DNA of 64,000 nucleotides from Clostridia bacterium (GTDB lineage Bacteria; Bacillota; Clostridia; Oscillospirales; CAG-272). Shown one piece after another: positions 4,106 to 53,180 of the stretch. The notes under the pieces are model-generated. The model did not search any database. It was not told where the DNA came from and saw nothing but the letters and a program-made list of their open reading frames with translations. The DNA is taken from contig JAFOEU010000055.1 in the NCBI GenBank assembly GCA_017387685.1, positions 89,989-153,988 of the forward strand, given 5' to 3'. The position numbers and the translations under genes were made by a program. The first letter of the stretch is position 1. Each line of letters starts with the position of its first letter.

Positions 4106-5272
4106 ATGAAGAATATCAAGTTAATGAATAAAATCGCCGCTTGCGGTACCGATATTTTTGACCGCGCGGTATATAACGTCGCTGACGACTGTGCGGCGCC
4201 CGAGGCGATAATGGTTCGCTCCGCCGCGCTTCACGATATGGAATTCAACCCCGAGCTTCTCGCGATCGCGCGTTGCGGTGCGGGTGTCAACAATATTCCG
4301 ATCGACCGCTGCACCGAGGCGGGAGTTGTAGTTTTCAACACCCCCGGCGCGAATGCGAACGGCGTTAAGGAGCTCGTTATCTGCGCGCTGATGCTTGCAT
4401 CGCGTGACGTTATCGGCGGCGCAAATTGGTCCGAAACGCTTACAACCGACGTTGCAAAGACGGTAGAGAAGGGCAAATCCGCTTTCGCAGGCTGTGAGCT
4501 TCGCGGTAAGACTCTCGGAGTTATCGGTCTCGGCGCGATCGGAGCAATGGTCGCAAACGCCGCGATCGACCTTGGTATGAAGGTTATCGGCTACGACCCC
4601 TACCTGACCGTTGACGGAGCGTGGAGAATTTCCCGTGCGGTAGGCCACGCGGTCACAACCGACGAAATTTTTGAAAAGAGCGATTATATCACCCTCCACG
4701 TTCCCGCTGTTGAGGCAACGAAGGGTATGATCCGCAAGGAAAATATTGATAAGATGAAGGATGGCGTCAAGATCATCAACCTTGCGCGCGCGGATCTCGC
4801 GATCGCGGCTGATATCAAGGACGCAATCGCGGCGGGCAAGATCTCGGCGTACGTCACCGACTTCCCGACCGAGGAAACCCTCGGTGTCAAGGGCATCGTT
4901 AATATCCCCCACCTTGGTGCATCCACGGGTGAGAGCGAGGATAACTGCGCGATCATGGCGGCAAATCAGCTCGTTGAGTTCCTTTCCACGGGTAATATCA
5001 AGAATTCCGTCAACTTCCCCGCGATCGATCTTCCTCCCCACGACGGCAGAAACGTCCTTGTCCTCCACGCAAACGTACCCGCGACCATCGCAAAGATCAC
5101 GACCGCCGTTGCGGAAAAGGGCGTCAACATCGAGCACCTTTCCAATAAATCCCGCGGCAACAACGCTTGCACACTCCTTGCCCTCGCCGTCGGCACCACC
5201 GACGCAGAGATCGCCGAAATGAAGAAGGCTATCGAAGCAAACGCAGGCATCTGGAGAGTAGTCGTTATTTAA
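4106..5272 (+). CDS. serA: D-3-phosphoglycerate dehydrogenase with a C-terminal ACT-like domain
   Basis: 2-hydroxyacid dehydrogenase NAD site GVIGLGAIGAMVA. The protein is 388 aa and the gene lies directly downstream of serC. Confidence 0.88.
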   Translation: MKNIKLMNKIAACGTDIFDRAVYNVADDCAAPEAIMVRSAALHDMEFNPELLAIARCGAGVNNIPIDRCTEAGVVVFNTPGANANGVKELVICALMLASRDVIGGANWSETLTTDVAKTVEKGKSAFAGCELRGKTLGVIGLGAIGAMVANAAIDLGMKVIGYDPYLTVDGAWRISRAVGHAVTTDEIFEKSDYITLHVPAVEATKGMIRKENIDKMKDGVKIINLARADLAIAADIKDAIAAGKISAYVTDFPTEETLGVKGIVNIPHLGASTGESEDNCAIMAANQLVEFLSTGNIKNSVNFPAIDLPPHDGRNVLVLHANVPATIAKITTAVAEKGVNIEHLSNKSRGNNACTLLALAVGTTDAEIAEMKKAIEANAGIWRVVVI

Positions 5273-5575
5273 GTGCAGAGTTAAGAGTGCAGAGTGCAGA
5301 GTTGAGGTGGATTTTCAAGCTCCGCTTGAAAATCATTGGTGCTTTAATTTTGTGCGGTGCTGATGCAATTTACTGCTGTGCTGAAATACAGAGAATAAAA
5401 TAAAAATCTCGGATATTTCGAAGCTTCGCTTCGGATATCCGAGATTTTTTAATTTGTTATGACTTTGGCTATGTGAAATTTAATCAGCACATCACAAAAT
5501 TATTAATATGGAATTTTCGCCACGGCGAAAATTTCCCTTCAACTCTGCACTCTGCACTCTTAACTCTGCACTTGA
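5273..5575. repeat. complete foldback element filling the serA / lipoprotein convergent spacer
   Basis: 5273-5305 is the exact reverse complement of 5539-5571 (33 bp of GTGCAGA-type heptamers). Junction hairpins lie at 5310-5335 and 5511-5535. A nested inverted repeat surrounds the central terminator. Confidence 0.9.
5402..5450. terminator. bidirectional intrinsic terminator
   Basis: AAAAATCTCGGATATTTCGAAGC-TTCG-CTTCGGATATCCGAGATTTTTT, with an A-run and a T-run flanking a long stem. Confidence 0.85.
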
Positions 5576-8607: not shown

Positions 8608-10263
8608 ATGAAAAAATATACCGTTGGAATAGATTTCGGAACGCTTTCGGGCAGAGCTGTGCTCGTTGACGTTATGACGGGCGAGGAGTGCGCAAGCGTC
8701 GTGATGGACTACCCTCACGCCGTCATCGACAGCATCCTTCCCGCGAGCGGTGAGGTGCTCCCGATCAATTGGGCACTCGAAGACCCGCGCGATTATCTCG
8801 CAGTTCTCGAATTTCTTTTCCCCGCGCTCTGCCGCGAGGCGGGCATCGAAAAGGAGCAGATCGTCGGTGTCGGCATCGACTTCACCTGCTGTACGATCCT
8901 TCCGATCAAAAAAGACGGCACCGCGCTCGTTTCTCTGCCCGAGTTTGAGCAGAATAAGCACGCCTACGTCAAGCTCTGGAAGCATCACGCCTCCCAGCCG
9001 TGGGCGGACCGTATGAACGAGGTTGCCGCAGAGCGAGGCGAGACCTTCGTCAATTATTTTGGCGGTAAGATATCGAGCGAATGGCTCTTCCCGAAGCTTC
9101 TCCAAACCGCAAAGGAAGCCCCCGAGGTCATAGAGGCGGCTGATTACTATATCGAGGCGGGAGATTGGCTCAATTTCTTGCTCACCGGCGTGCAGAAGCG
9201 CGGATATCTTTTCGCGTCCTACAAGGCGGAGTATCTGCCGGACGTCGGATACCCCTCCGACGAATATCTCGCGGCGGTCGATCCCGAGCTACCCGAGCTC
9301 GCGCACCGTCTGCTTGACGCCCCCATCGCGCAGATGGGCGAGTGCGTCGGTCGCGTTACCAAAGAGGCGGCTGAAAGATTCGGTCTTGCCGAGGGTACTG
9401 CCGTTGCCGCGTCGATCCCCGATGCCCACGTTGCCGCCCCCGCTGTTGGACTGACCAAGCCCGGCGATATTTACGGCATTTTCGGCACTTCCAATTGCTA
9501 TTTTACACTTGCTGATATTTACAGAGATATTGGCGGAATCTGCGGATACGTTCCCGACGGTCTTATGCCGGGTTACTTCGGCGTTGAAGCGGGACTTTGC
9601 GCCGTAGGCGACCATTTTGCGTGGGTTGTGGACAATCTTGCAACCGCAGAGGACAAGGCGGAAGCCGAGCAGCTCGGAATTCCCGTCATTCAGCTCCTCG
9701 TCCGCCGCGCGGCAAAGAAAAAGCCGGGCGAAACCGGACTTCTCGCCCTCGACTGGTGGAACGGAAACCGAAACATCCTCGTTGACGGCAATCTGACGGG
9801 ACTTTTGATCGGTATGACGCTCCGCACCAAGACCGATGATATCCTCCGCGCCCTTATTGAGGCGACCGCGTTTGCGACCAAGGTCATCATCGACCGTATG
9901 GAGGAATGCGGAATGAAGATCGACAGCCTCATCGCCGCGGGCGGAATCGCGCGCAAGGACGCATTTACGATGCAGGTCTACTCCGACGTCCTCGGCATCC
10001 CGATCAATGTAATTTCCTCAAAACAGGCTCCCGCACTCGGCAGTGCTATCTACGCCGCCGTTGCCGCAGGCGAATACCCCGACATTTTTGCCGCCTCCGA
10101 CGCTATGAAGAGCCCGATCTACAGCAGTTATACCCCCAATAAAGAGAACGAAAAGGTCTACTCCGCACTCTACCGCGAATACCTCACCCTTCACGACTAT
10201 TTCGGTCGCGGCGGGAACGACGTTATGAAGCGTTTGCTTAAGATCTCGCAGGGGGAGATTTAA
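8608..10263 (+). CDS. araB: FGGY-family sugar kinase, most likely L-ribulokinase
   Basis: The N-terminus GIDFGTLSGRAVLV and the 551-aa length match ribulokinases as I remember them. Confidence 0.75.
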   Translation: MKKYTVGIDFGTLSGRAVLVDVMTGEECASVVMDYPHAVIDSILPASGEVLPINWALEDPRDYLAVLEFLFPALCREAGIEKEQIVGVGIDFTCCTILPIKKDGTALVSLPEFEQNKHAYVKLWKHHASQPWADRMNEVAAERGETFVNYFGGKISSEWLFPKLLQTAKEAPEVIEAADYYIEAGDWLNFLLTGVQKRGYLFASYKAEYLPDVGYPSDEYLAAVDPELPELAHRLLDAPIAQMGECVGRVTKEAAERFGLAEGTAVAASIPDAHVAAPAVGLTKPGDIYGIFGTSNCYFTLADIYRDIGGICGYVPDGLMPGYFGVEAGLCAVGDHFAWVVDNLATAEDKAEAEQLGIPVIQLLVRRAAKKKPGETGLLALDWWNGNRNILVDGNLTGLLIGMTLRTKTDDILRALIEATAFATKVIIDRMEECGMKIDSLIAAGGIARKDAFTMQVYSDVLGIPINVISSKQAPALGSAIYAAVAAGEYPDIFAASDAMKSPIYSSYTPNKENEKVYSALYREYLTLHDYFGRGGNDVMKRLLKISQGEI

Positions 10264-10325
10264 GTGGCTAGTGACTAGTGGCTAGTGACTAGTGAAGGTG
10301 AATTTTCGCCAAAGGCGAAAATTTT
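10264..10325 (+). repeat. repeat arm: GTGGCTA/GTGACTA heptamers + AAGGTGAATTTTCGCC-AAA-GGCGAAAATTTT
   Basis: The arm starts on the nucleotide after the araB stop. It has five heptamers and then the junction hairpin. Confidence 0.85.
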
Positions 10326-12734: not shown

Positions 12735-13583
12735 ATGCATATTAATATCAATATCGGTACAAGTGAAAAGGATTTCAACACCGAAAAGAAGAAAAAGCTC
12801 ACACCCGAGCAGAAGACGAAGATCAAAAATGCGGTAAAATCGGGTTATGGAAAGCTCCGCGTTGCCGCGGGCAGACTTTATTCGACCGTTGAGGACAAGG
12901 TCTTTGACGGCAGATGCTTCCTCTCCGAGCTGAAAGAGGGGATCCTTGAAGACGTTGCTGCCGTCCGTGAGCGAGACCCCGCGGCGAGAAGCGACATTGA
13001 GGTCATGCTTCTCTATTCGGGCGTTCACGCGATGCTCGCATACCGCGTGGCGCATAAGCTTTACGTCAATGAAAAATTTCTCCCCGCGAGAGCGGTTTCA
13101 CAGCTTGCGCGATTCCTGACGGGAATTGAGATCCACCCCGGCGCGCAGATCGGTAAGCGACTTATGATCGACCACGGCTCGGGCGTCGTAATCGGCGAGA
13201 CCTGCATCATCGGCGACGATTGCACGATCTATCAGGGCGTAACCCTCGGCGGTACGGGTAAGGACACGGGCAAGCGACACCCCACACTCGGCAATAATGT
13301 AATGGTCGGCTCGGGCGCAAAGGTCCTCGGACCGTTCAAGATCGGCGACGGCGCGAAGATCGCGGCGGGCGCGGTGGTACTCAAAGAGATCCCCGCGGGC
13401 GCGACTGCAGTCGGCATCCCCGCGAAGGTAGTGCGCCGCAAGGGCGAACGCGTTGAGGAACAGCTCGACCAGATCCACATCCCCGACCCCGTATCGCAGC
13501 AACTCGGAGAGCTTGAGGCGAAGATAGCTGAACTTAAGAGCGAGATCGAGGAGCTCAAGAAGGGCGAGGAAAGTGCAGAGTGA
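12735..13583 (+). CDS. cysE: serine O-acetyltransferase with N- and C-terminal extensions
   Basis: RERDPAARS and hexapeptide repeats (IHPGAQIGKRLMIDHGSGVVIGETCIIGDDCTIYQGVTLGG). The RBS is AAGGAG. The last codons and the stop lie inside the heptamer repeat. Confidence 0.88.
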   Translation: MHININIGTSEKDFNTEKKKKLTPEQKTKIKNAVKSGYGKLRVAAGRLYSTVEDKVFDGRCFLSELKEGILEDVAAVRERDPAARSDIEVMLLYSGVHAMLAYRVAHKLYVNEKFLPARAVSQLARFLTGIEIHPGAQIGKRLMIDHGSGVVIGETCIIGDDCTIYQGVTLGGTGKDTGKRHPTLGNNVMVGSGAKVLGPFKIGDGAKIAAGAVVLKEIPAGATAVGIPAKVVRRKGERVEEQLDQIHIPDPVSQQLGELEAKIAELKSEIEELKKGEESAE

Positions 13584-13741
13584 AGAGTGCAGAATGCAGA
13601 GTTAAGGAGAATTTCCTTGCCTGCGGCTGCGGAAATTTTCAATTCTGATATAAACTCAACTCAAACTTTATAATAAAATTATTTTTCGCTTCAGCGAAAA
13701 ATTACCGTAACTCTGCACTCTGCACTCTGCATTCTGCACTG
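13573..13741. repeat. complete foldback element (GTGCAGA arms) between cysE and the GDPD gene
   Basis: Left heptamers lie at 13573-13607 with a hairpin to 13640. The right hairpin is at 13681-13703 and CTCTGCA heptamers at 13711-13741. Confidence 0.85.
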
Positions 13742-18210: not shown

Positions 18211-18534
18211 TTAAATTTTCGCAAGGATTTGAAGGTCTTCAATCATTTGATTGAATTTTTCCATTCCCCAAAGTTCAATGAGTTTATCTATCGGGCAGAG
18301 GGAATCTTCCGTCAGATATTTTTGCGCAAACTCGCCGCCGTCATCAATACCTCGGTCATATTTCAAGTAATGAAGTATCAGCTCGGTCAATTCGAGAGGA
18401 TAAAGTGCCGAAGCTATATAAGCATAATCGCGTTCGCCGATAAGCTCGCGGAGCAGGTCGCATAGTGGGAGTGAAAGAAACAAGGGAGAATTTTCTTCGA
18501 GCTTATTAAAACCGGGATATTTGCAGTTTGCCAT
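18211..18534 (-). CDS. hypothetical 107-aa protein
   Basis: ORF 18211..18648 is trimmed to the ATG at 18534, which has a GAGGAG RBS. The upstream part of the ORF covers a terminator hairpin. Confidence 0.5.
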   Translation of the reverse strand: MANCKYPGFNKLEENSPLFLSLPLCDLLRELIGERDYAYIASALYPLELTELILHYLKYDRGIDDGGEFAQKYLTEDSLCPIDKLIELWGMEKFNQMIEDLQILAKI

Positions 18535-18745
18535 TTTTCTTCTCCTCAAATAAAAAGTGTTAAACAAAAAGTGCGCAGCCGAAGCCACGCACAAAAAACG
18601 TAGCTCCTTTTGCTGCGAAACAAGAAAACCTATACCTGAATTTAACACCCAAAGTATACGAAAACAGAGCGTACATTTTTATCATAGATAAAATGTACAC
18701 TTCAAGTGTATTCAATTCAGGAAACATATAGTTTTCCTGTTTCGC
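18535..18745 (-). promoter_or_regulatory. structured 5' leader L1 with an intrinsic terminator (riboswitch/attenuator-like, class unknown)
   Basis: Promoter TTTACA-17-TATAAT (18752-18780). Closing helix CUGCGAAACAGGAAAAC / GUUUUCUUGUUUCGCAG. Terminator GUGCGUGGC-UUCG-GCUGCGCAC-UUUUU (18566-18592). Confidence 0.55.
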
Positions 18746-18886
18746 AGATTTATTATATCACATTTTCTTTGATTTGTAAACAGTTTTTTGAAAAATGGAT
18801 TTAAGTTTTAGAAACTATATTTTATAAAAACGGATTCATAGCAGGGCGAGTTGCATCTTATATTTTTTCCAAAAACAACAGCACGT

Positions 18887-19070
18887 GTCATCCTGAGCGA
18901 AGCGTAAGCGTAGTCGAAGGATCTCGCGAAGCGTCCGGCACGTGGGTTTGGATGTGAATAATATCTCTGTAATAATTTTATTGATTCATATTGATAAAAT
19001 TCACAGCAGACATCAATATTGACCCGCTTCGCGAGATCCTTCGGCTACGCTTTGCTCCGCTCAGGATGAC
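18887..19070. mobile_element. MITE-like inverted repeat (about 46-bp arms, AT-rich centre)
   Basis: The left arm is GTCATCCTGAGCGAAGCGTAAGCGTAGTCGAAGGATCTCGCGAAGCG (18887-18933). The right arm (19025-19070) is its imperfect reverse complement. No ORF lies inside. Confidence 0.5.
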
Positions 19071-19127
19071 AGCGAAATGGAGTTTTTGCTAAAAATTCAA
19101 TTTACGGCTCGTAATAAAGTTATGTAT

Positions 19128-19174
19128 AAAAAAACTACGGATACCGCAGTCTGAACTCGGTATCCGTGGTTTTG
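19128..19174 (-). terminator. intrinsic terminator of the 22995-19316 operon
   Basis: On the minus strand: CCACGGATACCGAG...CGGTATCCGTAG followed by TTTTTT. Confidence 0.75.
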
Positions 19175-19197
19175 TATATGGAAAGAGTGAAGCGCAT

Positions 19198-19317
19198 TGG
19201 AGAGTTTCGCGCTCTGCGGAGGTCGACTTAAGGATATTCAAAAGCTTTCCCTCTGCTGTTGTCTTTTATTTGAATGAAAATTCACATTACCTCTGCCCTC
19301 TAACCTCTGCCCTTCTC
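19198..19317 (-). repeat. composite repeat (reverse orientation) ending in CCTCTGC heptamers that overlap the stop codon at 19316-19318
   Basis: GGAGAGTTTCG-GCGCTCTGCGGAGG-CGACTTAAGG...CTGCTGTTGTCTTTTATTTGAATGAAAATT, then CCTCTGC CCTCTAA CCTCTGC CCTTCTC. The junction hairpin is deleted in this copy. Confidence 0.75.
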
Positions 19318-20188
19318 AAAGGCTTGTTTTCGAAACGAGGTGCTTTGCTCTCTTTACCATAAATTCTACCGCGGTGGGGAAGAATTCGTTGTCGAATCCC
19401 TTGAGGAAGGCGTCAGCCTCGTAGGTGAATTCGCCGTCGTACTTGATATCCTCGAATGCCTTCATAATGTTATCCCAGTTCATCAGACCGAGTCCGGGGA
19501 TGGTGTGGCGGTCGCCCTGATAATCGTTATCGTGGAGGTGGACCGACTTGAGTCTGTCGTGACCGAGGATGCGGATGGTGTCCTCTGCCTCCTCGCCGAC
19601 GAGCGAGCAATGTCCGACGTCGAGGCAGGCAACTACCCACTCGCTGTCGATCGCGTCGATGAGCGCGGCGTGATCCTTCGCGAATCCCGCAACGTCGGTG
19701 CAGATGCACTTACGCTTGATTTCCTTCTGCCACATATTCTCAAGCGCGATCTTTACGCCGAGATTGCGTGCAAGCGGAACGAGCGACTTGTAATACTGAA
19801 TATTCAGCTCATTGATCTCATCCTCGTGACCGAGATAGGGCATCCAGTGGAGGGGATGAACGACCGCGATCTTAACGCCCATCATCGCGCTGATCTCAAG
19901 CGACTGCTCGACGCGGGGCTTCGCGATATTTTCGCGGATGTTTTCGTCTGCCCAAGCAAAGGAGAAGGGCGCGTGCGACTGATTGAAGATGATTCCGTTT
20001 GCATCGCAAAAAGCCTTTCGCTCTTCAACGAGCTTTCTCCAATCGCCTGCAATATAGGGGCTGTCATCGCGGATCATCTCGAAGAGGGAGAGATCGAGGC
20101 AATCGTAGCCCGCGTTTTTAAGGGTGAGGACTCCCTGTTCGAATCCAAGTCTGCCAACCGAATGACCGGTCTGTGTTGAAATAAGCAT
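19316..20188 (-). CDS. sugar phosphate isomerase/epimerase (xylose isomerase-like TIM barrel)
   Basis: A 290-aa protein with a family-typical pattern (HAPF...VVHP...ALEN...DVGH...HLHDN). Confidence 0.75.
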   Translation of the reverse strand: MLISTQTGHSVGRLGFEQGVLTLKNAGYDCLDLSLFEMIRDDSPYIAGDWRKLVEERKAFCDANGIIFNQSHAPFSFAWADENIRENIAKPRVEQSLEISAMMGVKIAVVHPLHWMPYLGHEDEINELNIQYYKSLVPLARNLGVKIALENMWQKEIKRKCICTDVAGFAKDHAALIDAIDSEWVVACLDVGHCSLVGEEAEDTIRILGHDRLKSVHLHDNDYQGDRHTIPGLGLMNWDNIMKAFEDIKYDGEFTYEADAFLKGFDNEFFPTAVEFMVKRAKHLVSKTSL

Positions 20189-20206
20189 GATTTTTGTTCC
20201 TTTCGG

Positions 20207-22246
20207 TTATTTCTTCTTGAAGTTTGCTGTAAAGGTTGTCGCTTTAGCGATCTTGACGTTGCCCGTTCCGGTGAGCGCACCGTCAGCGGTGGACCAACCC
20301 TCGAAGACGTAGCCGTCGAGGGGGATGACCTTGACGATAACGTTGCCCTTGCCGTCGTTTTCAAGCTCGATGCGTCCGCCCTCGCTTGCAACGATGCTTT
20401 GTGACTCAGCTATTGAGAAGACCAGCTTTGCCGTAGTGCCGTCGGGGTGCGTGATCTGAATATACTTACTGCACGCACGGGAGGTGAAGGTGATCGTTTC
20501 TGCCTTGACACCGTTTACGACGCTGTGTGTGGAAAGTCCGAGGATGCCCTCGTCCTTCTGGCTGAAATTGCAGGACTCGAGCTTTATGTCGTTGTTTTCA
20601 AACTTCAAGCCGTAAACGCCCTGGAATTTGAAAATGCCGTCCTTGACAGCGGGCTGACCGTTGCAGGTGACCTTATTGTCGGTGAAATTGATATTTCCCA
20701 TGTAATTCGTTGCCTTGAGATAACCCGAGAGCATATAGGGCTTGCTGTTGTAAGTATCCTGACGGAGAACGTTCTCTCTGAAAATGATGCCGGGAGTAAC
20801 GCTTGTGCCGGTTACGAGGATTACTCTCTTGTCCGAGCCTCTTTCGATCGTGAATTCGTTATTCGAAATATTCACGTTATGCGTGCCCGCCTGCTCAAAG
20901 GCGAAAGCTTTGGTGATCTTTTTGCCGTCGACGACGTTATTATAGGTCACGTCTGAGGTGTTGGGATAAAGAATTATAAACGCGGGGTTCGCTTCGGTGC
21001 AGAATTTATTGGAATCCTTGGTGGCAATAAAGGTGTTGCCCGTGATCTCAACGTTCGTGATGCTCGCGAAGCGGATCGCGGCGTAGGTCGGGCGGTCAAA
21101 GACGTTGTTGGTGATCTTGAAATTGTCCGCGACAGCCTCGTGTGCCGTTCCGTGGTGACCGATCGCGATGTGCGCGCCGGGGAGCTCATCGGAGGGGCCG
21201 AAATAGCAGGAGTCGATGGTGATATTTTTGCATCCGTAGAGCTCGCCGTAATCAAAGCGGACGGGAGCATTCTCGTGGTTGCTGCTGTGCGCGCCGGGAT
21301 GCGACTGCTCGATCTGAATGGTCTCGCGGGTAAAGGTATCGCCCCACTCAAAGCCCGCGAAGATGCAGTTGCGGATGGTGACGTCCTCACAGCCCGTCAC
21401 CTGAATGACGTGGTTGTTCTTGATATCCTTGAATATCATATTTTCGATCGTAATACCCTTACTCAAACCGAAAAGGAGGGTCGACTGGGTCGAATGATCG
21501 TTATCAATTACACCGCCGCTGACCGTGAAGTTAGAGGAACCGTTTCTGCCGAATTCCTTCATTTTCGTGTTGAGAATACGCGCAAGGATCAAAACGGTGA
21601 CCTCACCGTTCTTTACCTTTTCTGCAAGCTCGTCGGTGAAGCCTTCGCCCGCATCGGTGAAGCCCGAGTACATCTTCAGAGTTACGCCTTCGCGCATGGT
21701 GATGACCTTGATATTATAAAATCCGGGGTAGATAAAGATGGTACCGCCGCCCTTTTTCGAGGTACTGTCGATGAGGGACTGAAGCTTTGAGGACTGATCA
21801 GTCAGATTTGTCGATGTCTTGCTTCCCGTAATGCCGTATTTTGCGGCGCTGATGAATTCTTCCTCGCAAGGAAAAGCTTCATAAGTGATGCCGCCGTCTT
21901 CCGCAACCTTTGCCTTGATAGACGCCTTGTGACCGAAGCAGTCGAGAACCGCTATTTCGGTCTCGCCGACGTGGAGCGAGGTCAGGGTTACGTTGTAAGA
22001 ACGCGGAACAAGCTCCGCCGAGAGAATATTGGGGTCTGCGATCTCGAGAGAATACGCAGGAAAGCCCCAACCGGGATTGTTAACCGTTACGGTTGTGGAT
22101 TCAACGGGAATAAGCGCCGTTGTTTCGGGCGCGGGCGCGGTGGTGTCGGCTACCGTTGTTTCGACGGGCTCACCGTCGCCGCCGCAGGATACCGAAATCA
22201 ATGCAGTGAGGAGCAAAATAATTATTAAACTAAACTTTTTCATCAT
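20207..22246 (-). CDS. secreted lipoprotein with a right-handed beta-helix domain and a C-terminal Listeria/Bacteroides-type repeat
   Basis: Lipobox LLTALISVSC. Beta-helix repeats (VIQVTGCEDVTIRNCIF, ITIDSCYF). C-terminal GYVFEGWSTADG motif. Confidence 0.7.
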   Translation of the reverse strand: MMKKFSLIIILLLTALISVSCGGDGEPVETTVADTTAPAPETTALIPVESTTVTVNNPGWGFPAYSLEIADPNILSAELVPRSYNVTLTSLHVGETEIAVLDCFGHKASIKAKVAEDGGITYEAFPCEEEFISAAKYGITGSKTSTNLTDQSSKLQSLIDSTSKKGGGTIFIYPGFYNIKVITMREGVTLKMYSGFTDAGEGFTDELAEKVKNGEVTVLILARILNTKMKEFGRNGSSNFTVSGGVIDNDHSTQSTLLFGLSKGITIENMIFKDIKNNHVIQVTGCEDVTIRNCIFAGFEWGDTFTRETIQIEQSHPGAHSSNHENAPVRFDYGELYGCKNITIDSCYFGPSDELPGAHIAIGHHGTAHEAVADNFKITNNVFDRPTYAAIRFASITNVEITGNTFIATKDSNKFCTEANPAFIILYPNTSDVTYNNVVDGKKITKAFAFEQAGTHNVNISNNEFTIERGSDKRVILVTGTSVTPGIIFRENVLRQDTYNSKPYMLSGYLKATNYMGNINFTDNKVTCNGQPAVKDGIFKFQGVYGLKFENNDIKLESCNFSQKDEGILGLSTHSVVNGVKAETITFTSRACSKYIQITHPDGTTAKLVFSIAESQSIVASEGGRIELENDGKGNVIVKVIPLDGYVFEGWSTADGALTGTGNVKIAKATTFTANFKKK

Positions 22247-22995
22247 GATTTTACAAATTTAGCAGCTTCAAATGCCGCGCTGTAGAACTCATCGAGGCTC
22301 ATTTCGGGGATGCGCTTGACTTCAAGCGAAATTATGCCCTCGTAACCTTCAAGATTCTTTCGGACGTAATCCCAATCAACGCCCGTGCCGCGTCCGGGGA
22401 GGAGGTGTTCGTCGGCGTTGTAGATTCCGCTGTTATCGTGCAGATGGAGCGCGGCGAGCCTTGAGCGGTACTTCGGGAGCGCAAGCTTGGTCTGCGAGAA
22501 GCAGGACTCGTGACCGCTGTCGTAGCAGAATTTCAGGCGCGGGCAGTCGAGCTTGGCGTAAATGTAGTCGATAAAGTGGAAAAATCTCTGATTTTCAAGG
22601 CAGATATCGACGTTTGCGCGGTCGGCAACCTCAATAAGCCTTGCCATTCTGTCCATACCGATCTCGGAGATGGGCGGGTAATCGTTGCCCGAGGAAATAT
22701 GGAGAACCGCGCGCGGAATGCCAAACTTGCCGCACTCGGTAAAGTTTTCTTCAAGCATTTTGTAGGCAGCCTCGCCGTCAAGGTTGTCGCGCCAGAAGTT
22801 GTTGATGCCGTTCCAGGGCGCGTGGCAGTTGTTGATCTCAAGACCAACCTTGTGGATAATGTCGACCTGCTTTGCGTTGTCAAAAGTACCGCTGAGGCTG
22901 ATAAGCACCGCATCAAATCCCGCGCGCTTGATAGCCTCAAATGTAGCAGTAGGATCAGATTTCTGTTTTCCGGTATGAATGCCGTATTTGATCAT
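22243..22995 (-). CDS. sugar phosphate isomerase/epimerase (TIM barrel)
   Basis: A 250-aa protein with the pattern HAPW...VLHISSG...CLEN...DSGH...HLHDN. It overlaps the downstream gene by 4 nt. Confidence 0.75.
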   Translation of the reverse strand: MIKYGIHTGKQKSDPTATFEAIKRAGFDAVLISLSGTFDNAKQVDIIHKVGLEINNCHAPWNGINNFWRDNLDGEAAYKMLEENFTECGKFGIPRAVLHISSGNDYPPISEIGMDRMARLIEVADRANVDICLENQRFFHFIDYIYAKLDCPRLKFCYDSGHESCFSQTKLALPKYRSRLAALHLHDNSGIYNADEHLLPGRGTGVDWDYVRKNLEGYEGIISLEVKRIPEMSLDEFYSAAFEAAKFVKS

Positions 22996-23025
22996 AGTAA
23001 TGTCTTCCTTTTTGTGCTGTTATAG

Positions 23026-23150
23026 TCGGCTTCGCCGAGTGATAATCTCGCTTCGCGAGAGTGATAATCCGCCTGCGGCGGAGTGATAATTTCCGCTGCG
23101 CGGAAAATAAAGGTGAATTTTCTCGCCTTCGGCTCAAAAATTATTAAATT
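23026..23150 (+). repeat. repeat arm: 3x AGTGATAAT + mini-hairpin units, then AATAAAGGTGAATTTT and a degenerate hairpin
   Basis: TCGGCTTCGCCGA GTGATAAT CTCGCTTCGCGAG AGTGATAAT CCGCCTGCGGCGG AGTGATAAT TTCCGCTGCGCGGAA. Confidence 0.8.
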
Positions 23151-23230
23151 ACGGGAATTAAGTAATATTTTTAGTCTCTTTATACTGCGCCGTCCCCTAC
23201 AAGCTTTGGGTGAAGATTTAATTGAAATAT

Positions 23231-23264
23231 AAAAACGGAGCAACGCCAAAAAGACGTTGCTCCG
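23231..23264 (-). terminator. intrinsic terminator of fba
   Basis: On the minus strand: CGGAGCAACGTC-TTTTTGG-CGTTGCTCCG followed by TTTTT. Confidence 0.8.
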
Positions 23265-23273
23265 CAAACGAAA

Positions 23274-24233
23274 TTAAAGGGTATTGGAAGAGCCGAGAAC
23301 GTTGACGATCTTGTGGCGGACCATCTTCTTAACTTCCTCACGAGCAACCTTGAGATACTCTCTGGGGTCGAACGCTGCGGGGTTCTCGTTGAATACGCGG
23401 CGGATACCCGCGGTCATAGCGAGACGGATGTCGGAGTCGATGTTGATCTTACAAACAGCCATCTGAGCTGCGCGGCGAAGCTGCTCCTCGGGAATGCCTA
23501 CTGCATCGGGGAGCTGACCGCCGAGGGCATTGATCTCTGCAACGTATTCCTGGGGAACGGAGGATGCGCCGTGGAGAACGATGGGGAACTCGGGAAGACG
23601 CTTGCCGATCTCTTCAAGAATGTCAAAACGGAGAGGAGGAGGAACAAGGATGCCCTTCTCATTTCTGGTGCACTGTGCGGGAGTGAACTTATATGCGCCG
23701 TGGGAGGTACCGATGGAGATAGCGAGGGAGTCAACGCCGGTGCGGGTTACGAAATCCTCAACCTCTTCGGGACGGGTGTAGGAGGAGTGCTCAGCTACAA
23801 CGTCATCCTCAACGCCTGCGAGAACGCCGAGCTCGCCCTCAACAACGCATCCGCGTGCGTGAGCGTACTCAACGACCTTCTTGGTGAGAGCGATATTGTC
23901 TTCGTAGTCGAAGTGAGAACCGTCGATCATAACGGAGGTAAAGCCGCCGTCGATGCAGGACTTGCAGATCTCGAAATCTGCGCCGTGGTCAAGGTGAAGA
24001 GCGAAATCAACGCCGCTGTCCTCAGCTGCTGCGCGAGCGAGGCCCATGAGGTATGCGTGCTTAGCATACTTACGAGCGCCTGCGGAAACCTGAAGAACTA
24101 CGGGGGACTTCTCCTCTGCAGCTGCCTCGGTGATCGCCTGGATAATTTCCATGTTGTTAATGTTGAAAGCGCCGATAGCATAGCCGCCGGCATAAGCCTT
24201 CTTGAACATTTCCTTGGTTGTTACAAGTGCCAT
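23274..24233 (-). CDS. fba: class II fructose-1,6-bisphosphate aldolase
   Basis: The N-terminus MALVTTKEMFKKAYAGGYAIGAFNINNMEIIQAI, followed by LHLDHG. The protein is 319 aa and the RBS is AAGGAG. Confidence 0.92.
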   Translation of the reverse strand: MALVTTKEMFKKAYAGGYAIGAFNINNMEIIQAITEAAAEEKSPVVLQVSAGARKYAKHAYLMGLARAAAEDSGVDFALHLDHGADFEICKSCIDGGFTSVMIDGSHFDYEDNIALTKKVVEYAHARGCVVEGELGVLAGVEDDVVAEHSSYTRPEEVEDFVTRTGVDSLAISIGTSHGAYKFTPAQCTRNEKGILVPPPLRFDILEEIGKRLPEFPIVLHGASSVPQEYVAEINALGGQLPDAVGIPEEQLRRAAQMAVCKINIDSDIRLAMTAGIRRVFNENPAAFDPREYLKVAREEVKKMVRHKIVNVLGSSNTL

Positions 24234-24487
24234 TTTAAATCTCCTTGTGAGTTAATTTATTTCCACTCTATATTATACACTTTTTTTGTTAAGAAATCAA
24301 GATTTTCGGGGAATATTGTTTGGATATTTGAGAAAAAAACAGAAAAATCCCGCAATATGACGGGATTTTGGACAGAGCGCCATCTGTAGGCGAATTTTTT
24401 TATCTTAATTATATTTAGCACTTGGTTTTGCCCAGACAAGATCGAGAGCTTCTGTTCAGGTAATATTTAATGAGTGTTACAAAAATT

Positions 24488-24757
24488 TTACTCAGAAATA
24501 GCCTCTGTCAACATTTTTACTGCAAGCGAAAAGCCTTTGATAAATGAAACTTCCGCCTCGGTTAATGAGATCTCTGTGTGACAGGTACGAAGCCGATCGA
24601 GAACTTGTTTTCCGTCCGCGTCGAGCTTGTTCCATAGAATATTATAATAAGCATCGACCTTTTTATTCAACTCTCTTATTTTCTCATCGTCAGCATCTGT
24701 TTTATCTTTTATAGGGTGGATGTCTCCGCGCCAGAGTTCGGACAGTGTCTCTTTCAT
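24488..24757 (-). CDS. hypothetical 89-aa protein (resembles a small Firmicute DUF family from memory, unverified)
   Basis: The RBS is GGAGG. The protein is helical and charged. It is preceded by leader L2. Confidence 0.55.
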   Translation of the reverse strand: MKETLSELWRGDIHPIKDKTDADDEKIRELNKKVDAYYNILWNKLDADGKQVLDRLRTCHTEISLTEAEVSFIKGFSLAVKMLTEAISE

Positions 24758-24986
24758 TTTTCCGCCTCCAATACAAAAAGTGCGCAGCCGAAGCCGCGCA
24801 CCGAAAAACGCAAACTCCGATTGCTGCTACACAAACCGAAGTTAGATCTCAACCTTTTGGGTTCACTCCAACCGCGTGGAATCTGCGTTTTTGCCGATTT
24901 CATACGAATGGAGTGTTCGCCAAAAAAGGGTATAGTTATACAACTATGCCAAAAGATAGGAGATCATTTTATTCAGTTTGTGTAGC
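24758..24986 (-). promoter_or_regulatory. structured 5' leader L2 with an intrinsic terminator (paralogue of L1)
   Basis: Promoter TTTACA-17-TATAAT (24993-25021). Closing helix UUGCUACACAAAC / GUUUGUGUAGCAG. Terminator GUGCGCGGC-UUCG-GCUGCGCAC-UUUUU (24774-24802). Confidence 0.55.
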
Positions 24987-25116
24987 AAATATATTATAGC
25001 ATATTTTGGGCACTTTGTAAACACTTAATTGAAATTTTAGCGTAGTTTATAAAGTTTAACAAAAAGAAAATTCCCGCCGAAGCGGAAATTTTCTATATGC
25101 AAAATTATAAAAAGGA

Positions 25117-25145
25117 TTGACAAAATATAAAAACCGGTGTATAAT
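25117..25145 (+). promoter_or_regulatory. promoter of the candidate antitoxin sRNA
   Basis: TTGACA (25117-25122), a 17-nt spacer, then TATAAT (25140-25145). Confidence 0.65.
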
Positions 25146-25151
25146 AATAAC

Positions 25152-25237
25152 GTAGGAGCACCGATACGGTTGCTTCCTTACATGATTATCAAAAAGATAA
25201 CCGCAGTGTTGGTAGCAGGGCGGTTATCTTTTTTTGT
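25152..25237 (+). ncRNA. candidate antisense sRNA (type I antitoxin-like)
   Basis: It runs from the promoter at 25117 to the shared hairpin AGATAACCGC...GCGGTTATCT and its T-run (25195-25236). It is complementary to the 3' end of the toxin mRNA. Its 5' module CGUAGGAGCACCGAUACGGUUGCUUCC resembles the toxin 5' UTR. Confidence 0.5.
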
Positions 25238-25313
25238 TTTTAAAACAGGTTATAATGGCAATAATAAGCATAGCGATCTTAATAAGATCGTCCCATGTAA
25301 TATATTCTTCCAT
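25224..25313 (-). CDS. 29-aa hydrophobic peptide MEEYITWDDLIKIAMLIIAIITCFKNKKR (type I toxin / holin-like toxin candidate)
   Basis: Not in the ORF track because it is under 60 aa. The RBS GGAGGGAGG is sequestered in a 9-bp hairpin (25321-25342). It has its own promoter, TTGACA-17-TATAAA, at 25422-25450. The stop codon lies inside the shared terminator stem. Confidence 0.6.
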   Translation of the reverse strand: MEEYITWDDLIKIAMLIIAIITCFKNKKR

Positions 25314-25514: not shown

Positions 25515-25738
25515 ACTCCTTCCGAACAGCCGCCGGGGCGGCGTCTGTTCGAAGCGCGGAGGGAGTTTCGCCGTCTGCGGACGGCGACTTAAGGCTCTGC
25601 CTTAAGAAACCGCAAGTTTTTGAAAAAACTTGACTAAAACTTTCCCGCTATCTTTATTTCGCCGCAGGCGAATTATCACTCTCGCGAAGCGAGATTATAA
25701 CTCTGCCGTAGGCAGATTATCACTCGCGCTCTGCGCGA
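25515..25738 (-). repeat. composite repeat (reverse orientation) ending in ATTATCACT + mini-hairpin units
   Basis: ACTCCTTCCGAA...TTCGAAGCGC..GGGAGTTTCG-CCGTCTGCGGACGG-CGACTTAAGG...AAAACTTTCCCGCT, then the array at 25657-25738. The mazF ORF ends inside the array. Confidence 0.8.
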
Positions 25739-26156
25739 CAACCCCCGCCTCCGCCACAGCCGCAGGCTGTACCTCCACTCCCTCCCCATACGCTCCTGCG
25801 GGAGGCAGCACTATACCAAAGCTCACCGCGATCGCGTTGTTGACTCTATCCATCATCTCATCGTCGAGGTGTCCCATCCGCTCGCGCAGGCGGCGTTTGT
25901 CGAGCGTTCTGATCTGCTCGAGCAGTATCACCGAATCCCTCGCCAGTCCCGCGCGCTCGGCGTATATGTCGATATGTGTGGGCAGGCGCGTTTTGCTCAT
26001 TCGCGATGTAATTGCCGCCGCTATCACGGTCGGACTGTATTTATTCCCAACGTCGTTTTGTATTATCAGCACGGGCCGAAGTCCGCCCTGCTCCGAGCCG
26101 ACGACGGGCGAAAGATCTGCATAATATATATCCCCTCTGCGTATCTGCGAGTTCAT
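25695..26156 (-). CDS. mazF: MazF/EndoA-type endoribonuclease toxin with a ~35-aa C-terminal extension
   Basis: [44 protein letters not shown]...LPTHIDI...[17 protein letters not shown] is very close to B. subtilis EndoA as I remember it. The tail [37 protein letters not shown] has no counterpart there. Confidence 0.85.
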
Positions 26157-26339: not shown

Positions 26340-27149
26340 ATGAATTACTGGACACAATCAAAGGATAATATATACGTTGCCGCTCATCGCGGATGGAGCA
26401 CCGTTTACCCCGAAAATACTCTCCTCGCATTTAAAAAGGCTATCGAGATCGGTGTTGACCAGATCGAGACCGACGTTCGCATCACCCGCGACGGCGAGCT
26501 TGTCTGCATCCACGATGCCGCCGTCGACCGCACCACAAACGGCACGGGTAAGGTCTGCGACAAGACTCTCGCCGAGCTCAAAACTCTCGACGCAGGCTCT
26601 TGGAAGGGCGCGGAATTCGCGGGCGAGCGCATCCCCACCTTCATCGAGTTTATGGAGCTCGTCAAGGATCATCCCACGATGACCCTCGATATTGAGCTTA
26701 AGGAATACCCCGTTGACGGACGTGACGAGATCGCATACGAGGTCTGCGACCGCGTGCTTAAGATCATAGATGATTACGGCTTTACCGACCGCGTGGTCAT
26801 CAACACCTTCAACGGCAAGCTCCACGAATATATGGAAGAGAAGTACGGCTCGAAATACCGCCGCCACATCTACTACCCCCTCACCCACATGGGCAAGGTC
26901 AAGCGCGACCCCTACACCTCCTCGGCGTACTGCTGCTGTATGTTCCGCGCACTTTACAGCCCGATCAATATGGCGACAAAGGAGGAATTCGACCGTATGA
27001 TCGCTCTCGGAGTCCGTCCTTGGGCACCCGCGGGAGTCAAGACTCAGGAGCACGTTGACGAGGTCATCGCCTGCGGCGGCGAGCTTATCACTTGCAATAA
27101 TCCCGATGAGATCCTTGCATTTTTGAGAAACAGAGGAAAGCATAATTAA
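26340..27149 (+). CDS. glycerophosphodiester phosphodiesterase (second copy)
   Basis: ORF 25869..27149 is trimmed to the ATG at 26340, which has a GGAGG RBS and the promoter TTGACT-17-TATAAT (about 26284-26312). Contains the motifs AAHRGWSTVYPENT and ETDVRITRDGELVCIHD. Confidence 0.85.
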   Translation: MNYWTQSKDNIYVAAHRGWSTVYPENTLLAFKKAIEIGVDQIETDVRITRDGELVCIHDAAVDRTTNGTGKVCDKTLAELKTLDAGSWKGAEFAGERIPTFIEFMELVKDHPTMTLDIELKEYPVDGRDEIAYEVCDRVLKIIDDYGFTDRVVINTFNGKLHEYMEEKYGSKYRRHIYYPLTHMGKVKRDPYTSSAYCCCMFRALYSPINMATKEEFDRMIALGVRPWAPAGVKTQEHVDEVIACGGELITCNNPDEILAFLRNRGKHN

Positions 27150-27208
27150 GTGCAGAGTTCAGAGTGCAGAATGCAGAGTTAAGGTAAATTTTCGCGTTGC
27201 GAAAATTA
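27150..27208 (+). repeat. repeat arm: GTGCAGA heptamers + TTAAGGTAAATTTTCGC-GTT-GCGAAAATT
   Basis: The arm starts on the nucleotide after the stop codon. The AATTTTGTGCGGTGCTGAT module also seen at 5350 follows it. Confidence 0.85.
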
Positions 27209-34430: not shown

Positions 34431-34645
34431 AGGGGATAATAGAGATAAGTTGCTCCCGAAGGGAGCAGTGATAATCTCGCTTCGCGAGAGTGATAATCCG
34501 CCTTTCGGCGGAGTGATAATTTGCCTGCGGCAAAGTAAAGGTAAATTTCCTCGCTTTGCTCGGAAATTATCGAATGATTTATTTACTTTCAGCGAAGCTG
34601 AAATTATCACTCTCGCGAAGCGAGATCATCACTGCCCCTCGGGCA
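34431..34645. repeat. foldback element with AGTGATAAT + mini-hairpin arms (about 4 left units, 2 right units)
   Basis: The left arm is 34431-34535. The junction hairpin AAGGTAAATTTCCTCGC-TTTG-CTCGGAAATT is at 34536-34568. The right arm TTTCAGCGAAGCTGAAATTATCACTCTCGCGAAGCGAGATCATCACT is at 34587-34645. Confidence 0.8.
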
Positions 34646-34697
34646 CCTTATTCGGCGTGCGGTTTTTACATATTAAATTCACGAAAGGCATTTGATT

Positions 34698-42548: not shown

Positions 42549-43058
42549 CGAGATCGGGTTAATCTCGCTTCGCTCGAGTTATAATCCGCCTTCGGCGGAG
42601 TGATAATCGCCTTGCGGCGAGTGATAATTTGCCTTCGGCAAAATGAAGGTAGATTTTCGCCGAGGCGAAAATCTTTGATTTAAATAATAAGCGATGTTAC
42701 AAATAAGCCTTCCCCGGCGGGGAAGGTGGCAGCCCTTGCGGCTGCCGGATGAGGGGATCGCCGTCTGTACCGCAGACACGACAAGCGTATATGCATTTTC
42801 ATATAATTGAAAATTTCCGCCTCGGCGGAAATTCACCTTTATTTTTCGCGCAGCGAAAATTATCATTCTCGCGAAGCGAGATTATCATTTTGCCGAAGGC
42901 AGATTATCACTCGCCGCAAGGCGATTATCACTCCGCCGAAGGCGGATTATCACTCGAGCAAAGCGAGATTATCACTCCGCCGAAGGCGGATTATCACTCG
43001 AGCGAAGCGAGATTATCACTCCGCCGAAGGCGGACCATCACTCGAGCGTCAGCGAGAT
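42549..43058. repeat. large foldback element inside the ABC transporter operon (3 left units, structured core, 9 right units)
   Basis: Left words start at 42577, 42599 and 42620, with the junction hairpin at 42645-42673. The right junction hairpin is at 42809-42841. Right words ATTATCAYT start at 42859, 42881, 42903, 42924, 42946, 42968, 42990, 43012 and 43034. Confidence 0.9.
42686..42790 (+). ncRNA. conserved structured motif, copy 1 (function and functional strand unknown)
   Basis: H1 is CCTTCCCC-GGC-GGGGAAGG (42708-42726). H2 is GGCAGCC-CTTGC-GGCTGCC (42728-42746). GGATGAGGGGATCGCC follows. H3 is GTCTG-TACCG-CAGAC (42763-42777). Confidence 0.4.
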
Positions 43059-43074
43059 AGAAAGGACTTCAAAA

Positions 43075-46359: not shown

Positions 46360-46364
46360 TTAAA

Positions 46365-46432
46365 GTTACTAGTTGCTAGTTATTAGTTACTAGTTAAAGG
46401 TAAATTTCCGCCCCGATGGGGCGGAAATTTTT
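46365..46432 (+). repeat. repeat arm: GTTRCTA heptamers + TTAAAGGTAAATTTCCGCCCC-GAT-GGGGCGGAAATTTTT
   Basis: The arm begins 5 nt after the rbr stop. It matches the reverse-oriented arm at 48087-48153 at about 42 of 48 positions. Confidence 0.85.
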
Positions 46433-46439
46433 GATTTTA

Positions 46440-46469
46440 TTGACAATTACCTCTTTTTTATGGTATAAT
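46440..46469 (+). promoter_or_regulatory. sigma-A type promoter
   Basis: TTGACA, an 18-nt spacer, then TGG-TATAAT. Confidence 0.6.
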
Positions 46470-52357: not shown

Positions 52358-52588
52358 AGTATGACCTCCTTTGAGTGTTGAGATAATTGTATCACAAAAC
52401 GGAGGAAAATGCAATAGGGTAGGGGAAATATCTCGCGAAGCGAGAGTTATAATCTCGCTTACGCTCGAGTGATGATCCGCCTTGCGGCGGAGTGATAATC
52501 TCGCTTCGCTCGAGTGATAATTTGCCTGCGGCAAAGTTAAGGTGGATTTTCGCCGAGGCGAAAATCTCGATTTTTATTAAAATAATTT

Positions 52589-52695
52589 GCAAGTCTGTCA
52601 TATCTGCGGTACAGACTTCGATCTCCTCATCCACCACTGCCGTGGTCCCCCTTCCCCGCTGGGGAAGGCTGATTTTGAACATCGCTTATCATTTC
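52589..52695 (-). ncRNA. conserved structured motif, copy 3 (inverted relative to copies 1 and 2)
   Basis: The reverse complement reads GCCTTCCCC-AGC-GGGGAAGG, then GACCAC-GGCA-GTGGT, then GGATGAGGAGATCGAA, then GTCTGT...ACAGAC. H2 has a different sequence but still pairs. Confidence 0.4.
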
Positions 52696-52824
52696 TAAAC
52701 TTCGTTAAGTACGCTAATCATATCAAGAAAATGATAAAAACAAAATATATTTACAACTATTTTGCTAATTATGAGTAAGGAAATATAATTATCGAGTCTT
52801 TCTGCGGTGCTATATCACTATAAC

Positions 52825-52916
52825 ATATGTTCGCAGTTGCTATATAAGCCTTCCCCAGCGGGGAAGGTGGCAGCCCTTGGGGCTGACGGATGAGGAGACC
52901 GAAGTCTGTACTAGAC
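52825..52916 (+). ncRNA. conserved structured motif, copy 2
   Basis: CCTTCCCC-AGC-GGGGAAGG (52849-52867), GGCAGCC-CTTGG-GGCTGAC, GGATGAGGAGACCGAA, GTCT-GTACT-AGAC. Confidence 0.4.
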
Positions 52917-53147
52917 GAGGAATAGAGGCACTTATTATTTAATAAATATCGAAGATTTTCGCCGAGGCGAAAATCAACCTTAACTTTGCCGCAGGCAAAT
53001 TATCACTCGAGCGAAGCGAGATTATCACTCCGCCGAAGGCGGATTATCACTCTCGCGTAAGCAAGATTATCACTCCGCCGCAAGGCGGATTATCACTCTC
53101 GCGTAAGCGAGATTATCACTCCGCCGCAAGGCGGATTATCACTAAAT

Positions 53148-53180
53148 AAAATCAACCGAGCCTCGGCTCGGTTGATTTTA
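53148..53180 (-). terminator. intrinsic terminator of ftsH
   Basis: AAAATCAACCGAGCC-TCGG-CTCGGTTGATTTT. Confidence 0.8.

Follow-up and report, generated by a model that had tools for sequence, protein, structure and literature searches.

In transcriptional riboswitches such as those of the ZTP (pfl) class, a long-range pseudoknot adjacent to the terminator is part of the sensor, and clostridial cyclic di-GMP (c-di-GMP) riboswitches (GEMM-I/II) occur in many copies per genome before surface, adhesin and otherwise heterogeneous genes. Here, we describe two leaders, L1 and L2, that share traits with these and other attenuation systems. They lie on a 64,000-nucleotide stretch of the genome of a Clostridia bacterium of the Oscillospirales (GenBank assembly GCA_017387685.1, contig JAFOEU010000055.1, positions 89,989–153,988 of the forward strand; hereafter, the window), both on the minus strand (L1, 18565-18782; L2, 24774-25023), and each combines a near-consensus promoter and a long closing helix with a terminator block that is almost identical in the two. 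As in the ZTP class, a structured domain in the 5' untranslated region is followed by an intrinsic terminator, and a strand 3' of the main domain can pair back and would thereby decide terminator formation. As with T-boxes, we are dealing with a large leader family of Firmicutes found before many different genes, in which variable upstream stems precede a conserved 3' block with competing anti-terminator and terminator helices. The heterogeneous set of downstream genes resembles the global-signal regulon profile of the c-di-GMP riboswitches. On sequence evidence, both leaders are members of one RNA family of ~145-215 nt, and we consider it likely that this family works in cis as a transcription attenuator of riboswitch-like layout, in which either a terminator or an anti-terminator is formed.

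The promoters of L1 and L2 have the same arrangement of a -35 box and an extended -10 element (Table 1), and judging from the promoter sequence, the L1 RNA should start ~5-7 nt downstream of the extended -10, at the first bases of the closing helix (P1). P1 comprises 17 bp, including one G-U pair, in L1 and 13 bp in L2. The promoter block and the terminator 28-mer common to L1 and L2 each have two exact matches in the 64 kb, with 0 expected, while a GCAGCAA-NN-GGAG motif by itself is not significant (2 in the window vs 1.2 expected). Both leaders are predicted to fold more stably than their shuffled counterparts (L1, -74.1 kcal/mol, z = -7.8; L2, -91.1 kcal/mol, z = -8.1). Moreover, a terminator-free covariance model derived from other genomes recognized exactly two sites in the window, which are the two leaders; one match scored 66.9 bits (E = 3e-11) and the other 23.6 bits (E = 0.009). 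A sequence-only reading of this DNA had listed the promoter, closing helix and terminator block of both leaders and interpreted them as a riboswitch or attenuator layout; all of these features are present where it placed them, and the succession of promoter, structured domain and intrinsic terminator directly before the ribosome-binding site (RBS) is borne out. Its distance of 20-30 nt between terminator block and RBS needs correction, as the end of the U-tract is separated from the RBS by ~18 nt in L1 and by only ~5 nt in L2. It had also described the two leaders as paralogous; the pair is no paralogy private to this genome but part of a family with hundreds of copies.

Indeed, the family was found at more than 200 loci in Oscillospirales genomes and in gut and rumen metagenomes. 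The genome sample, to which all genome-locus counts below refer, was obtained by scanning species-representative genomes with the 22-nt terminator and comprises at least 120 stretches. Among the matches listed, almost all terminator-matching stretches fall into Oscillospirales bins (Oscillospiraceae, Acutalibacteraceae, Ruminococcus CAG bins, Ruminiclostridium and "Eubacteriales"), and in nearly all listed stretches the 40 nt upstream of the terminator are conserved as well (UUGUGUCGCAGCAAUCGGAGYURUGCRUUUUUCG). A covariance model (R1) built solely from the part upstream of the terminator detected 130 copies in the genome loci (among the matches listed) and 72 further copies in metagenomes (100 of 120 loci scanned); selection of the metagenome loci had relied on the core of the internal strand S described below, not on the terminator. 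About 40% of the metagenome matches to this 18-mer were unrelated protein-coding sequence and were discarded. The 18-mer GGTAAAARTGCATGCTCT also lies within apparent conserved coding sequence (context ...CCCATATCTTTTTCATCAAAAAAG...) at loci L129, L147, L153, L158, L162 and L165 and at ~40 other unrelated metagenome loci; judging by eye from the flanking sequence, we treat these occurrences as probably coincidental. No family match was found among IMG/VR viral contigs.

Complete elements begin 5 nt after a near-consensus extended -10, with UGCGACACAA-n-UGAAUA. In the family, the -35 box has at most 2 mismatches in 95 of 138 copies and the -10 box at most 1 mismatch in 118 of 138; a TG extension is present in 117 of 138 copies, and the distance from the -10 to UGCG is fixed at 5 nt in 111 of 138.

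The fold of the RNA was deduced from a plain MAFFT alignment (A2) of 64 non-redundant typical members that was not fitted to any structure, and from which all helix counts were taken. P1 is paired in 94.9% of cells, and six of its eight pairs change on both sides, including flips of base pairs between the strands (GC 41, CG 11, UA 4, AU 2). P3, in which a segment A pairs with a segment C, is paired in 79.6% of cells with all seven pairs double-changed, and P4 in 84.6% of cells with three of seven pairs double-changed. P2 varies in length and sequence and is always complementary; its own duplex has a mean energy of -11.5 kcal/mol vs -4.4 kcal/mol with the strand of another member, the own partner being better in 63 of 64 members. 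The internal loop between P1 and P2 is conserved, with UGAAUA opposite GAAA. For the structure as a whole, judged by the counts for P1, P3 and the long-range helix S:X2 introduced below, the observed values were equalled in none of 500 shuffles, and with the partners slid against each other only 33-58% of cells were paired. The alignment thus shows that the rod P1-(UGAAUA/GAAA internal loop)-P2-P3-P4, entered from the transcription start at P1, is an RNA fold.

The 3' strand of P4 and the adjoining segment B together form the strand S (GUAAAAAUGCAUGCUCU in the family). Locally, S can pair with X1, which consists of segment A and the P4 5' strand; this X1:S hairpin is paired in 80.7% of cells, with 10 of 14 pairs double-changed. 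A second partner, X2 (GGAGCUAUGCGUUUUU; GGAGCUAUGCRUUUUU), follows 5-6 nt after the 3' end of P1. RNAalifold proposed the long-range S:X2 helix unprompted. It comprises 14-15 bp, constitutes a pseudoknot relative to P1, and is paired in 95.6% of cells with 9 of 14 pairs double-changed. By hand reading, the complementarity extends over 14 bp with one bulged C in L1 and over 15 contiguous bp in L2 (AAAAACGCAGAUUCC with X2), and 15 contiguous pairs are likewise seen in 5 of 7 aligned copies of the long subfamily, L2 included; in this subfamily, the simple P3/P4 arrangement gives way to an insertion. X1 is a near-repeat of X2, and covariation shows S to have these two as mutually exclusive predicted partners. 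As in riboswitches, a structured 5' domain between promoter and RBS therefore covaries, in P1, P2, P3, P4 and S:X2.

X2 is, in addition, complementary to the terminator 5' arm and the first loop bases (UGCGUGGCUUC) over ~11 bp. This pairing is kept in 94.6% of cells, with 7 of 11 positions varying on the X2 side only and always in a wobble-compatible manner, and the duplex energy is -12.5 kcal/mol vs -6.1 kcal/mol for shuffled X2 (p = 2e-28). When transcripts were cut just before the terminator 3' arm, the anti-terminator folded in 82 of 82 members, while full-length folds, in which the pseudoknot cannot be represented, gave the terminator in 32 and the anti-terminator in 50. Local hairpin energies amount to -14.7 kcal/mol for the terminator vs -11.8 kcal/mol for the anti-terminator. 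The split folds and the local energies suggest that the two states are close in energy and finely balanced. For L1, the minimum-free-energy structure and the centroid from RNAfold alike pair GGAGCUACG(U) with (G)CGUGGCUUC, that is, the anti-terminator is predicted. On computational evidence, the leaders thus contain an expression platform in which mutually exclusive terminator and anti-terminator helices are coupled to the sensor. Substitutions in S:X2, unlike those in P1, are almost all transitions, as expected if X2 must fit both S and the G/U-rich terminator arm.

Table 1. Features of leaders L1 and L2, their genes and other elements in the window (positions in the 64,000-nt window).
Feature	Position	Strand	Sequence	Remarks
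L1 -35 box	18775-18780	minus	TTTACA	read directly
L1 extended -10	18752-18760	minus	TGATATAAT	17-nt spacer after -35; read directly
L1 P1 5' strand	18731-18747	minus	CUGCGAAACAGGAAAAC	partner 18613-18629
L1 junction	18709-18714	minus	UGAAUA	internal loop between P1/P1b and P2; AAUA nearly invariant in alignment A2
L1 X1	18687-18701	minus	AGUGUAC + AUUUUAUC	segment A + P4 5' strand; local partner of S
L1 switch strand S	18666-18683	minus	GAUAAAAAUGUACGCUCU	P4 3' strand 18675-18683 + segment B 18666-18674; matches family core
L1 segment C	18652-18659	minus	GUAUACUU	pairs with segment A as P3, thereby freeing segment B
L1 P1 3' strand	18613-18629	minus	GUUUUCUUGUUUCGCAG	partner 18731-18747
L1 X2	18593-18607	minus	GGAGCUACGUUUUUU	partner S (long-range) or terminator 5' arm + loop (anti-terminator)
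L1 intrinsic terminator	18571-18592	minus	GUGCGUGGC-UUCG-GCUGCGCAC	then U5, 18566-18570; local hairpin -14.1 kcal/mol
L1 RBS	18541-18547	minus	GAGGAGA	
L1 gene	18211-18534	minus		107-aa open reading frame
L2 -35 box	25016-25021	minus	TTTACA	same arrangement as L1
L2 extended -10	24993-25001	minus	TGCTATAAT	same arrangement as L1
L2 P1 5' strand	24976-24988	minus	UUGCUACACAAAC	partner 24824-24836
L2 junction	24970-24975	minus	UGAAUA	
L2 switch strand S	24878-24895	minus	GGCAAAAACGCAGAUUCC	segment B 24878-24886
L2 P1 3' strand	24824-24836	minus	GUUUGUGUAGCAG	partner 24976-24988
L2 X2	24804-24818	minus	GGAGUUUGCGUUUUU	local anti-terminator hairpin with terminator 5' arm, -9.5 kcal/mol
L2 intrinsic terminator	24780-24801	minus	GUGCGCGGC-UUCG-GCUGCGCAC	then U5, 24775-24779; hairpin -16.7 kcal/mol
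L2 RBS	24765-24769	minus	GGAGG	
L2 gene	24488-24757	minus		89-aa DUF6809 protein
PemK/MazF-type toxin gene	25695-26156	minus		E = 1.2e-36; just upstream of L2 promoter region
Perfect hairpin	25059-25093		GAAAATTTCCGC-TTCG-GCGGGAATTTTC	T and A runs flanking; ~40 nt upstream of L2 -35
Tandem mini-hairpin arrays	23017-23104, 25651-25740, 34483-34651, 42560-43072, 52439-53150			intergenic; 22-23-nt period
Short tandem repeats	5266-5316, 10257-10307, 13566-13616, 27143-27193, 1099-1175, 46364-46440		AGTGCAGAGT or AGTTGCTAGTT type	adjoin terminator-like hairpins (GGAAATTTTC...)

These pairings bear on the interpretation given in the sequence-only reading, according to which the two leaders have different sensor interiors and share only an expression platform that serves a protein or small RNA (sRNA) anti-terminator. 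The 3' block is indeed the best conserved part, and a trans-acting factor common to all copies is conceivable. However, the interiors are homologous, as L1 and L2 have the same conserved core (S strand, UGAAUA junction, P1 consensus and X2) and a single terminator-free model finds both. Moreover, the 3' block goes beyond a terminator combined with a protein site, since its GGAG...UUUUU part, X2, pairs with an internal strand in a covarying manner and also provides the 5' half of the predicted anti-terminator. No protein with a PRD, CAT or ANTAR domain was found among 20 neighbouring proteins scanned, a scope that covers the locus, so that a regulator could be encoded elsewhere in the genome. 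A trans partner for S or X2 was not found within the window either. Taken together, we regard a shared platform with unrelated interiors as highly improbable and continue with a single family of attenuators.

The terminator itself is less uniform than the genome sample suggests. That sample was ascertained by terminator sequence, and the description of the terminator as invariant had to be downgraded: in a terminator-independent sample of 45 non-redundant members from human gut, goat, rumen and bioreactor, the exact 22-mer occurs in 9 of 45 and a version within 2 mismatches in 22 of 45. All 45 nevertheless have a GC-rich hairpin followed by a U-tract, with compensatory variants in those stems that are not near-exact, and the conserved parts, UGCG(U/C) and GCUUC, are the bases that pair with X2. 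At locus L073 (6222-6436, minus strand), a copy of the long subfamily has a wholly different terminator, GAGCGUUGAC-UACG-GUUGACGCUC. The X2 of this copy is changed to GGAGUUUGCGCUUUU, so that complementarity to its own S strand as well as to the new terminator arm is retained. The same behaviour is seen in four additional copies that were detected by the model and not by the 22-mer, L073 6259-6436 being one of them.

The leaders are closely tied to genes. A same-strand open reading frame (ORF) with a Shine-Dalgarno (SD)-like sequence follows 109 of 131 copies (83%), usually 20-35 nt after the U-tract, and with RBS and ORF so near there is no room for a separate promoter. The family of the 107-aa protein encoded behind L1 is small (15 cluster representatives). 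At three independent orthologous loci with 56-61% protein identity and partly different gene neighbourhoods, the leader is present throughout: the promoter is the same, the 3' block is identical and the closing helix covaries; relatives thus keep the leader. The two proteins had been called uncharacterised in the sequence-only reading, and for the 107-aa protein there is indeed no Pfam family match. The 89-aa protein behind L2 belongs to DUF6809 (PF20648, E = 1.6e-16), whose genes also stand behind a family leader in three other sampled genomes. Among 101 distinct downstream proteins, we found 16 BspA-type LRR_5 surface proteins, 8 small XRE-type HTH_3 proteins, 4 DUF6809 proteins, 3 AMP-binding ligases and 2 SLOG/YpsA proteins; many are without a family, and ~23 start with a lipobox-like (lipoprotein-type) signal. 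The same leader before such different genes suggests that the signal, if any, is global rather than pathway-specific.

A number of points weigh against the attenuator reading. P1, at 12-17 bp, is unusually long for a ligand-gated P1, and a helix of 15 bp that links the interior of a closed P1 domain to sequence outside it would carry topological costs that energy models ignore. The predicted anti-terminator rests on conserved complementarity and wobble tolerance, with weak evidence of clear double compensation: duplexes of X2 with its own terminator arm differ from those with the arms of other members by only -0.8 kcal/mol, and the association between terminator position 6 (U/C) and X2 position 7 (A/G) is borderline (odds ratio 3, p = 0.053). 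The invariance of the terminator in the genome sample is partly built in by the way the sample was ascertained. With regard to the genes, no ORF was detected behind 22 of 131 copies, and several copies are tandem (e.g. at L124, L112 and L115), which fits stand-alone RNAs too. Finally, no metabolic or pathway theme was found among the 101 downstream proteins, so that, other than expected of a riboswitch, the downstream genes do not point to one metabolite or pathway.

The copies lacking a detected ORF could mean that the elements are multicopy independent sRNAs of ~150-210 nt that act in trans, as a sponge or with a protein partner, downstream expression being incidental read-through. Such genes would be expected to have a near-consensus promoter at a fixed distance and a strong terminator behind, as seen here, and a 5' end buried in P1 would stabilise the RNA. 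Tandem family members, two or three in a row, each with its own promoter and terminator and without an intervening gene, occur at L124 (6396-7057), L112, L115, L088 and L015 (3703-4232), so that a minority of copies could be stand-alone. At L015, the gene behind the second copy has a truncated counterpart (MSKFGK*) behind the first, a remnant suggesting duplication and then decay. At L055 (4219-4240, minus strand) and L058 (7365-7386, minus strand), the canonical 22-nt hairpin is found on its own, the remainder of the leader being missing. There it serves as an ordinary gene-end terminator behind an ABC-transporter ATPase gene, directly upstream of a leader promoter; these stand-alone terminators may be the remnant of a decayed copy. 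However, 83% of copies have an RBS and ORF on the same strand within tens of nucleotides, orthologous genes retain their own leader, and the conserved anti-terminator complementarity and near-equal fold energies would be purposeless in a pure sRNA gene. We therefore consider independent sRNAs unlikely and an attenuator in front of genes the better account.

The heterogeneity of the downstream genes, the high similarity of promoter and 3' block among copies and the missing ligand theme would also be in line with a constitutive leader cassette, in which a promoter, a 5' stabiliser and a leaky terminator, spread by duplication or recombination, set a fixed expression level and sense nothing. Yet several helices covary independently, including the two exclusive partners of one strand, and P2 covaries in copies that have diverged in sequence; neither a viral-contig match nor terminal repeats of the mobile-element type were found. 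Structures that are kept despite far-diverged sequence argue for selection on a switch and not for recent copying, making a constitutive cassette quite improbable, more so than independent sRNAs.

Other readings were discarded. A leader peptide encoded across the terminator (MRGFGCALF...) is contradicted by frame and stop, which differ between orthologues; the differing frames, together with conservation that reaches wobble positions, indicate conservation at the RNA level. Ribosome-mediated attenuation likewise does not fit an RNA that starts inside P1 and has no conserved ORF. By hand reading, the sole SD-like sequence, GGAG, is 2-3 nt away from AUG/GUG/UUG-like triplets in X2, and these triplets are absent in L1. 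The closing helix is not the terminal inverted repeat of a miniature transposable element, since it covaries between orthologues and paralogues. Retron, guide-RNA and phage origins were dismissed, with no reverse transcriptase or nuclease gene nearby and no viral-contig match, and a U-A-U triple helix of two U-tracts with the A-tract of S was rejected on polarity, as the two U strands are both antiparallel to the A strand.

The attenuator family defined here differs in several respects from described systems. In contrast to the ZTP class, formation of the pseudoknot would promote termination (OFF), the long-range helix extends over 14-15 bp and competes with a local hairpin, and a metabolic gene theme is lacking. 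Unlike T-boxes, the family has neither a T-box motif in its consensus nor a Stem I specifier architecture, Rfam searches gave no T-box match, the genes behind the leaders are neither aminoacyl-tRNA synthetase nor amino-acid genes, and the P4 loop is not conserved as a specifier would be. As in the multi-hairpin attenuators of trp and pyr operons (1:2/2:3/3:4), a chain of exclusive helices, C-A, X1-S, S-X2, X2-T5' and T5'-T3' (T5' and T3', terminator arms), ends in the terminator, but a leader peptide is impossible in an RNA that begins inside P1, and no PyrR- or TRAP-type repeat motif was seen on reading the alignments, no dedicated motif search having been run. RAT/LicT-SacY and ANTAR/EutV-NasR systems resemble the family in that a conserved sequence, immediately upstream of the terminator 5' arm and overlapping it, forms an anti-terminator at a site shared by a regulon. 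The family is, however, without the two-hexaloop ANTAR pattern and without the RAT palindrome, and it has a large covarying upstream domain that is not needed in those systems. Compared to the c-di-GMP riboswitches, finally, fold and conserved nucleotides are unrelated, and their Rfam models do not match.

Consistent with these differences, and as the sequence-only reading had stated in finding no T-box and no known aptamer, covariance-model searches with Rfam 15 (4227 models) gave no gathering-score match in the whole window, and E-value mode over 18400-25300 found nothing on either leader; T-box, c-di-GMP and raiA are among the families without a match to the leaders. For a typical member, L078, the best Rfam E-value was 0.41, with an unrelated microRNA model. 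The family was not found in the published literature by sequence and topic, a search whose scope did not include subscription journals or unnamed catalogue entries, nor in those supplement files of a large human-microbiome structured-RNA catalogue that were searched (the first 200 of 408). Apparently, it has not been described previously.

Based on these results, we suggest how the switch might operate. A strong sigma-A promoter would start the RNA at the first bases of P1, and X1:S would form first during transcription. Segment C could then take segment A to form P3, exposing segment B as a toehold from which S would capture X2. With S:X2 formed, the terminator 5' arm would be free, the terminator would form and transcription would stop before the gene (OFF). 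If S were instead kept in X1:S, X2 would be caught by the emerging terminator 5' arm, permitting read-through (ON). The choice between the folds would probably be kinetic and would be governed by a single effector, common to all leaders, that acts on either the P1-P3 domain or the pseudoknot. Which way the switch is thrown (ligand to OFF) and what the effector is are matters of guesswork; our guess would place a small molecule or second messenger first and an RNA-binding protein next. More tentatively than the attenuator function itself, and with some doubt, we therefore raise the possibility that the family is an orphan riboswitch class or an RNA-plus-protein regulon, in which dozens of surface and accessory genes per genome are switched together by a single global signal within the cell, for instance a second messenger, through a kinetic competition between the 15-bp pseudoknot and the anti-terminator.

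The chromosomal neighbourhood of the two leaders is ordinary (fba, holA, a GDPD gene, MgtC and a MazF toxin). The toxin gene lies close to L2, and the perfect hairpin between that gene and the L2 -35 box looks like a bidirectional terminator that would insulate the L2 leader promoter. Elsewhere in the window, intergenic arrays of mini-hairpins are found, in which each unit combines a short GC stem, capped by a loop of the CUUCG or GAAG type, with a downstream GUGAUAAU spacer; one of the arrays gave a sub-threshold match to Rfam Gut-1 (RF01706; 34 bits vs a gathering score of 50, E = 7.8e-4). The short tandem repeats listed in Table 1 recur at many gene ends of the window (repeat families D6, D11 and D12).

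Oscillospirales (Ruminococcaceae, Oscillospiraceae, Acutalibacteraceae) are abundant and mostly uncultured gut and rumen bacteria, and to our knowledge almost nothing is known about their gene regulation. One promoter-bearing leader before hundreds of genes for surface proteins, lipoproteins and regulators would define a large regulon that has gone unseen. If our proposal is true, gut and rumen Oscillospirales would co-switch BspA-type LRR proteins, lipoproteins, XRE regulators and DUF6809 proteins, and the regulon would give a handle on surface remodelling. An orphan class that is well populated, and in which one strand clearly covaries with two alternative partners, would lend itself to studies of co-transcriptional switching and to ligand hunting. 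The covariance model would, moreover, improve the annotation of metagenome-assembled genomes, in which these leaders are currently unannotated intergenic sequence.

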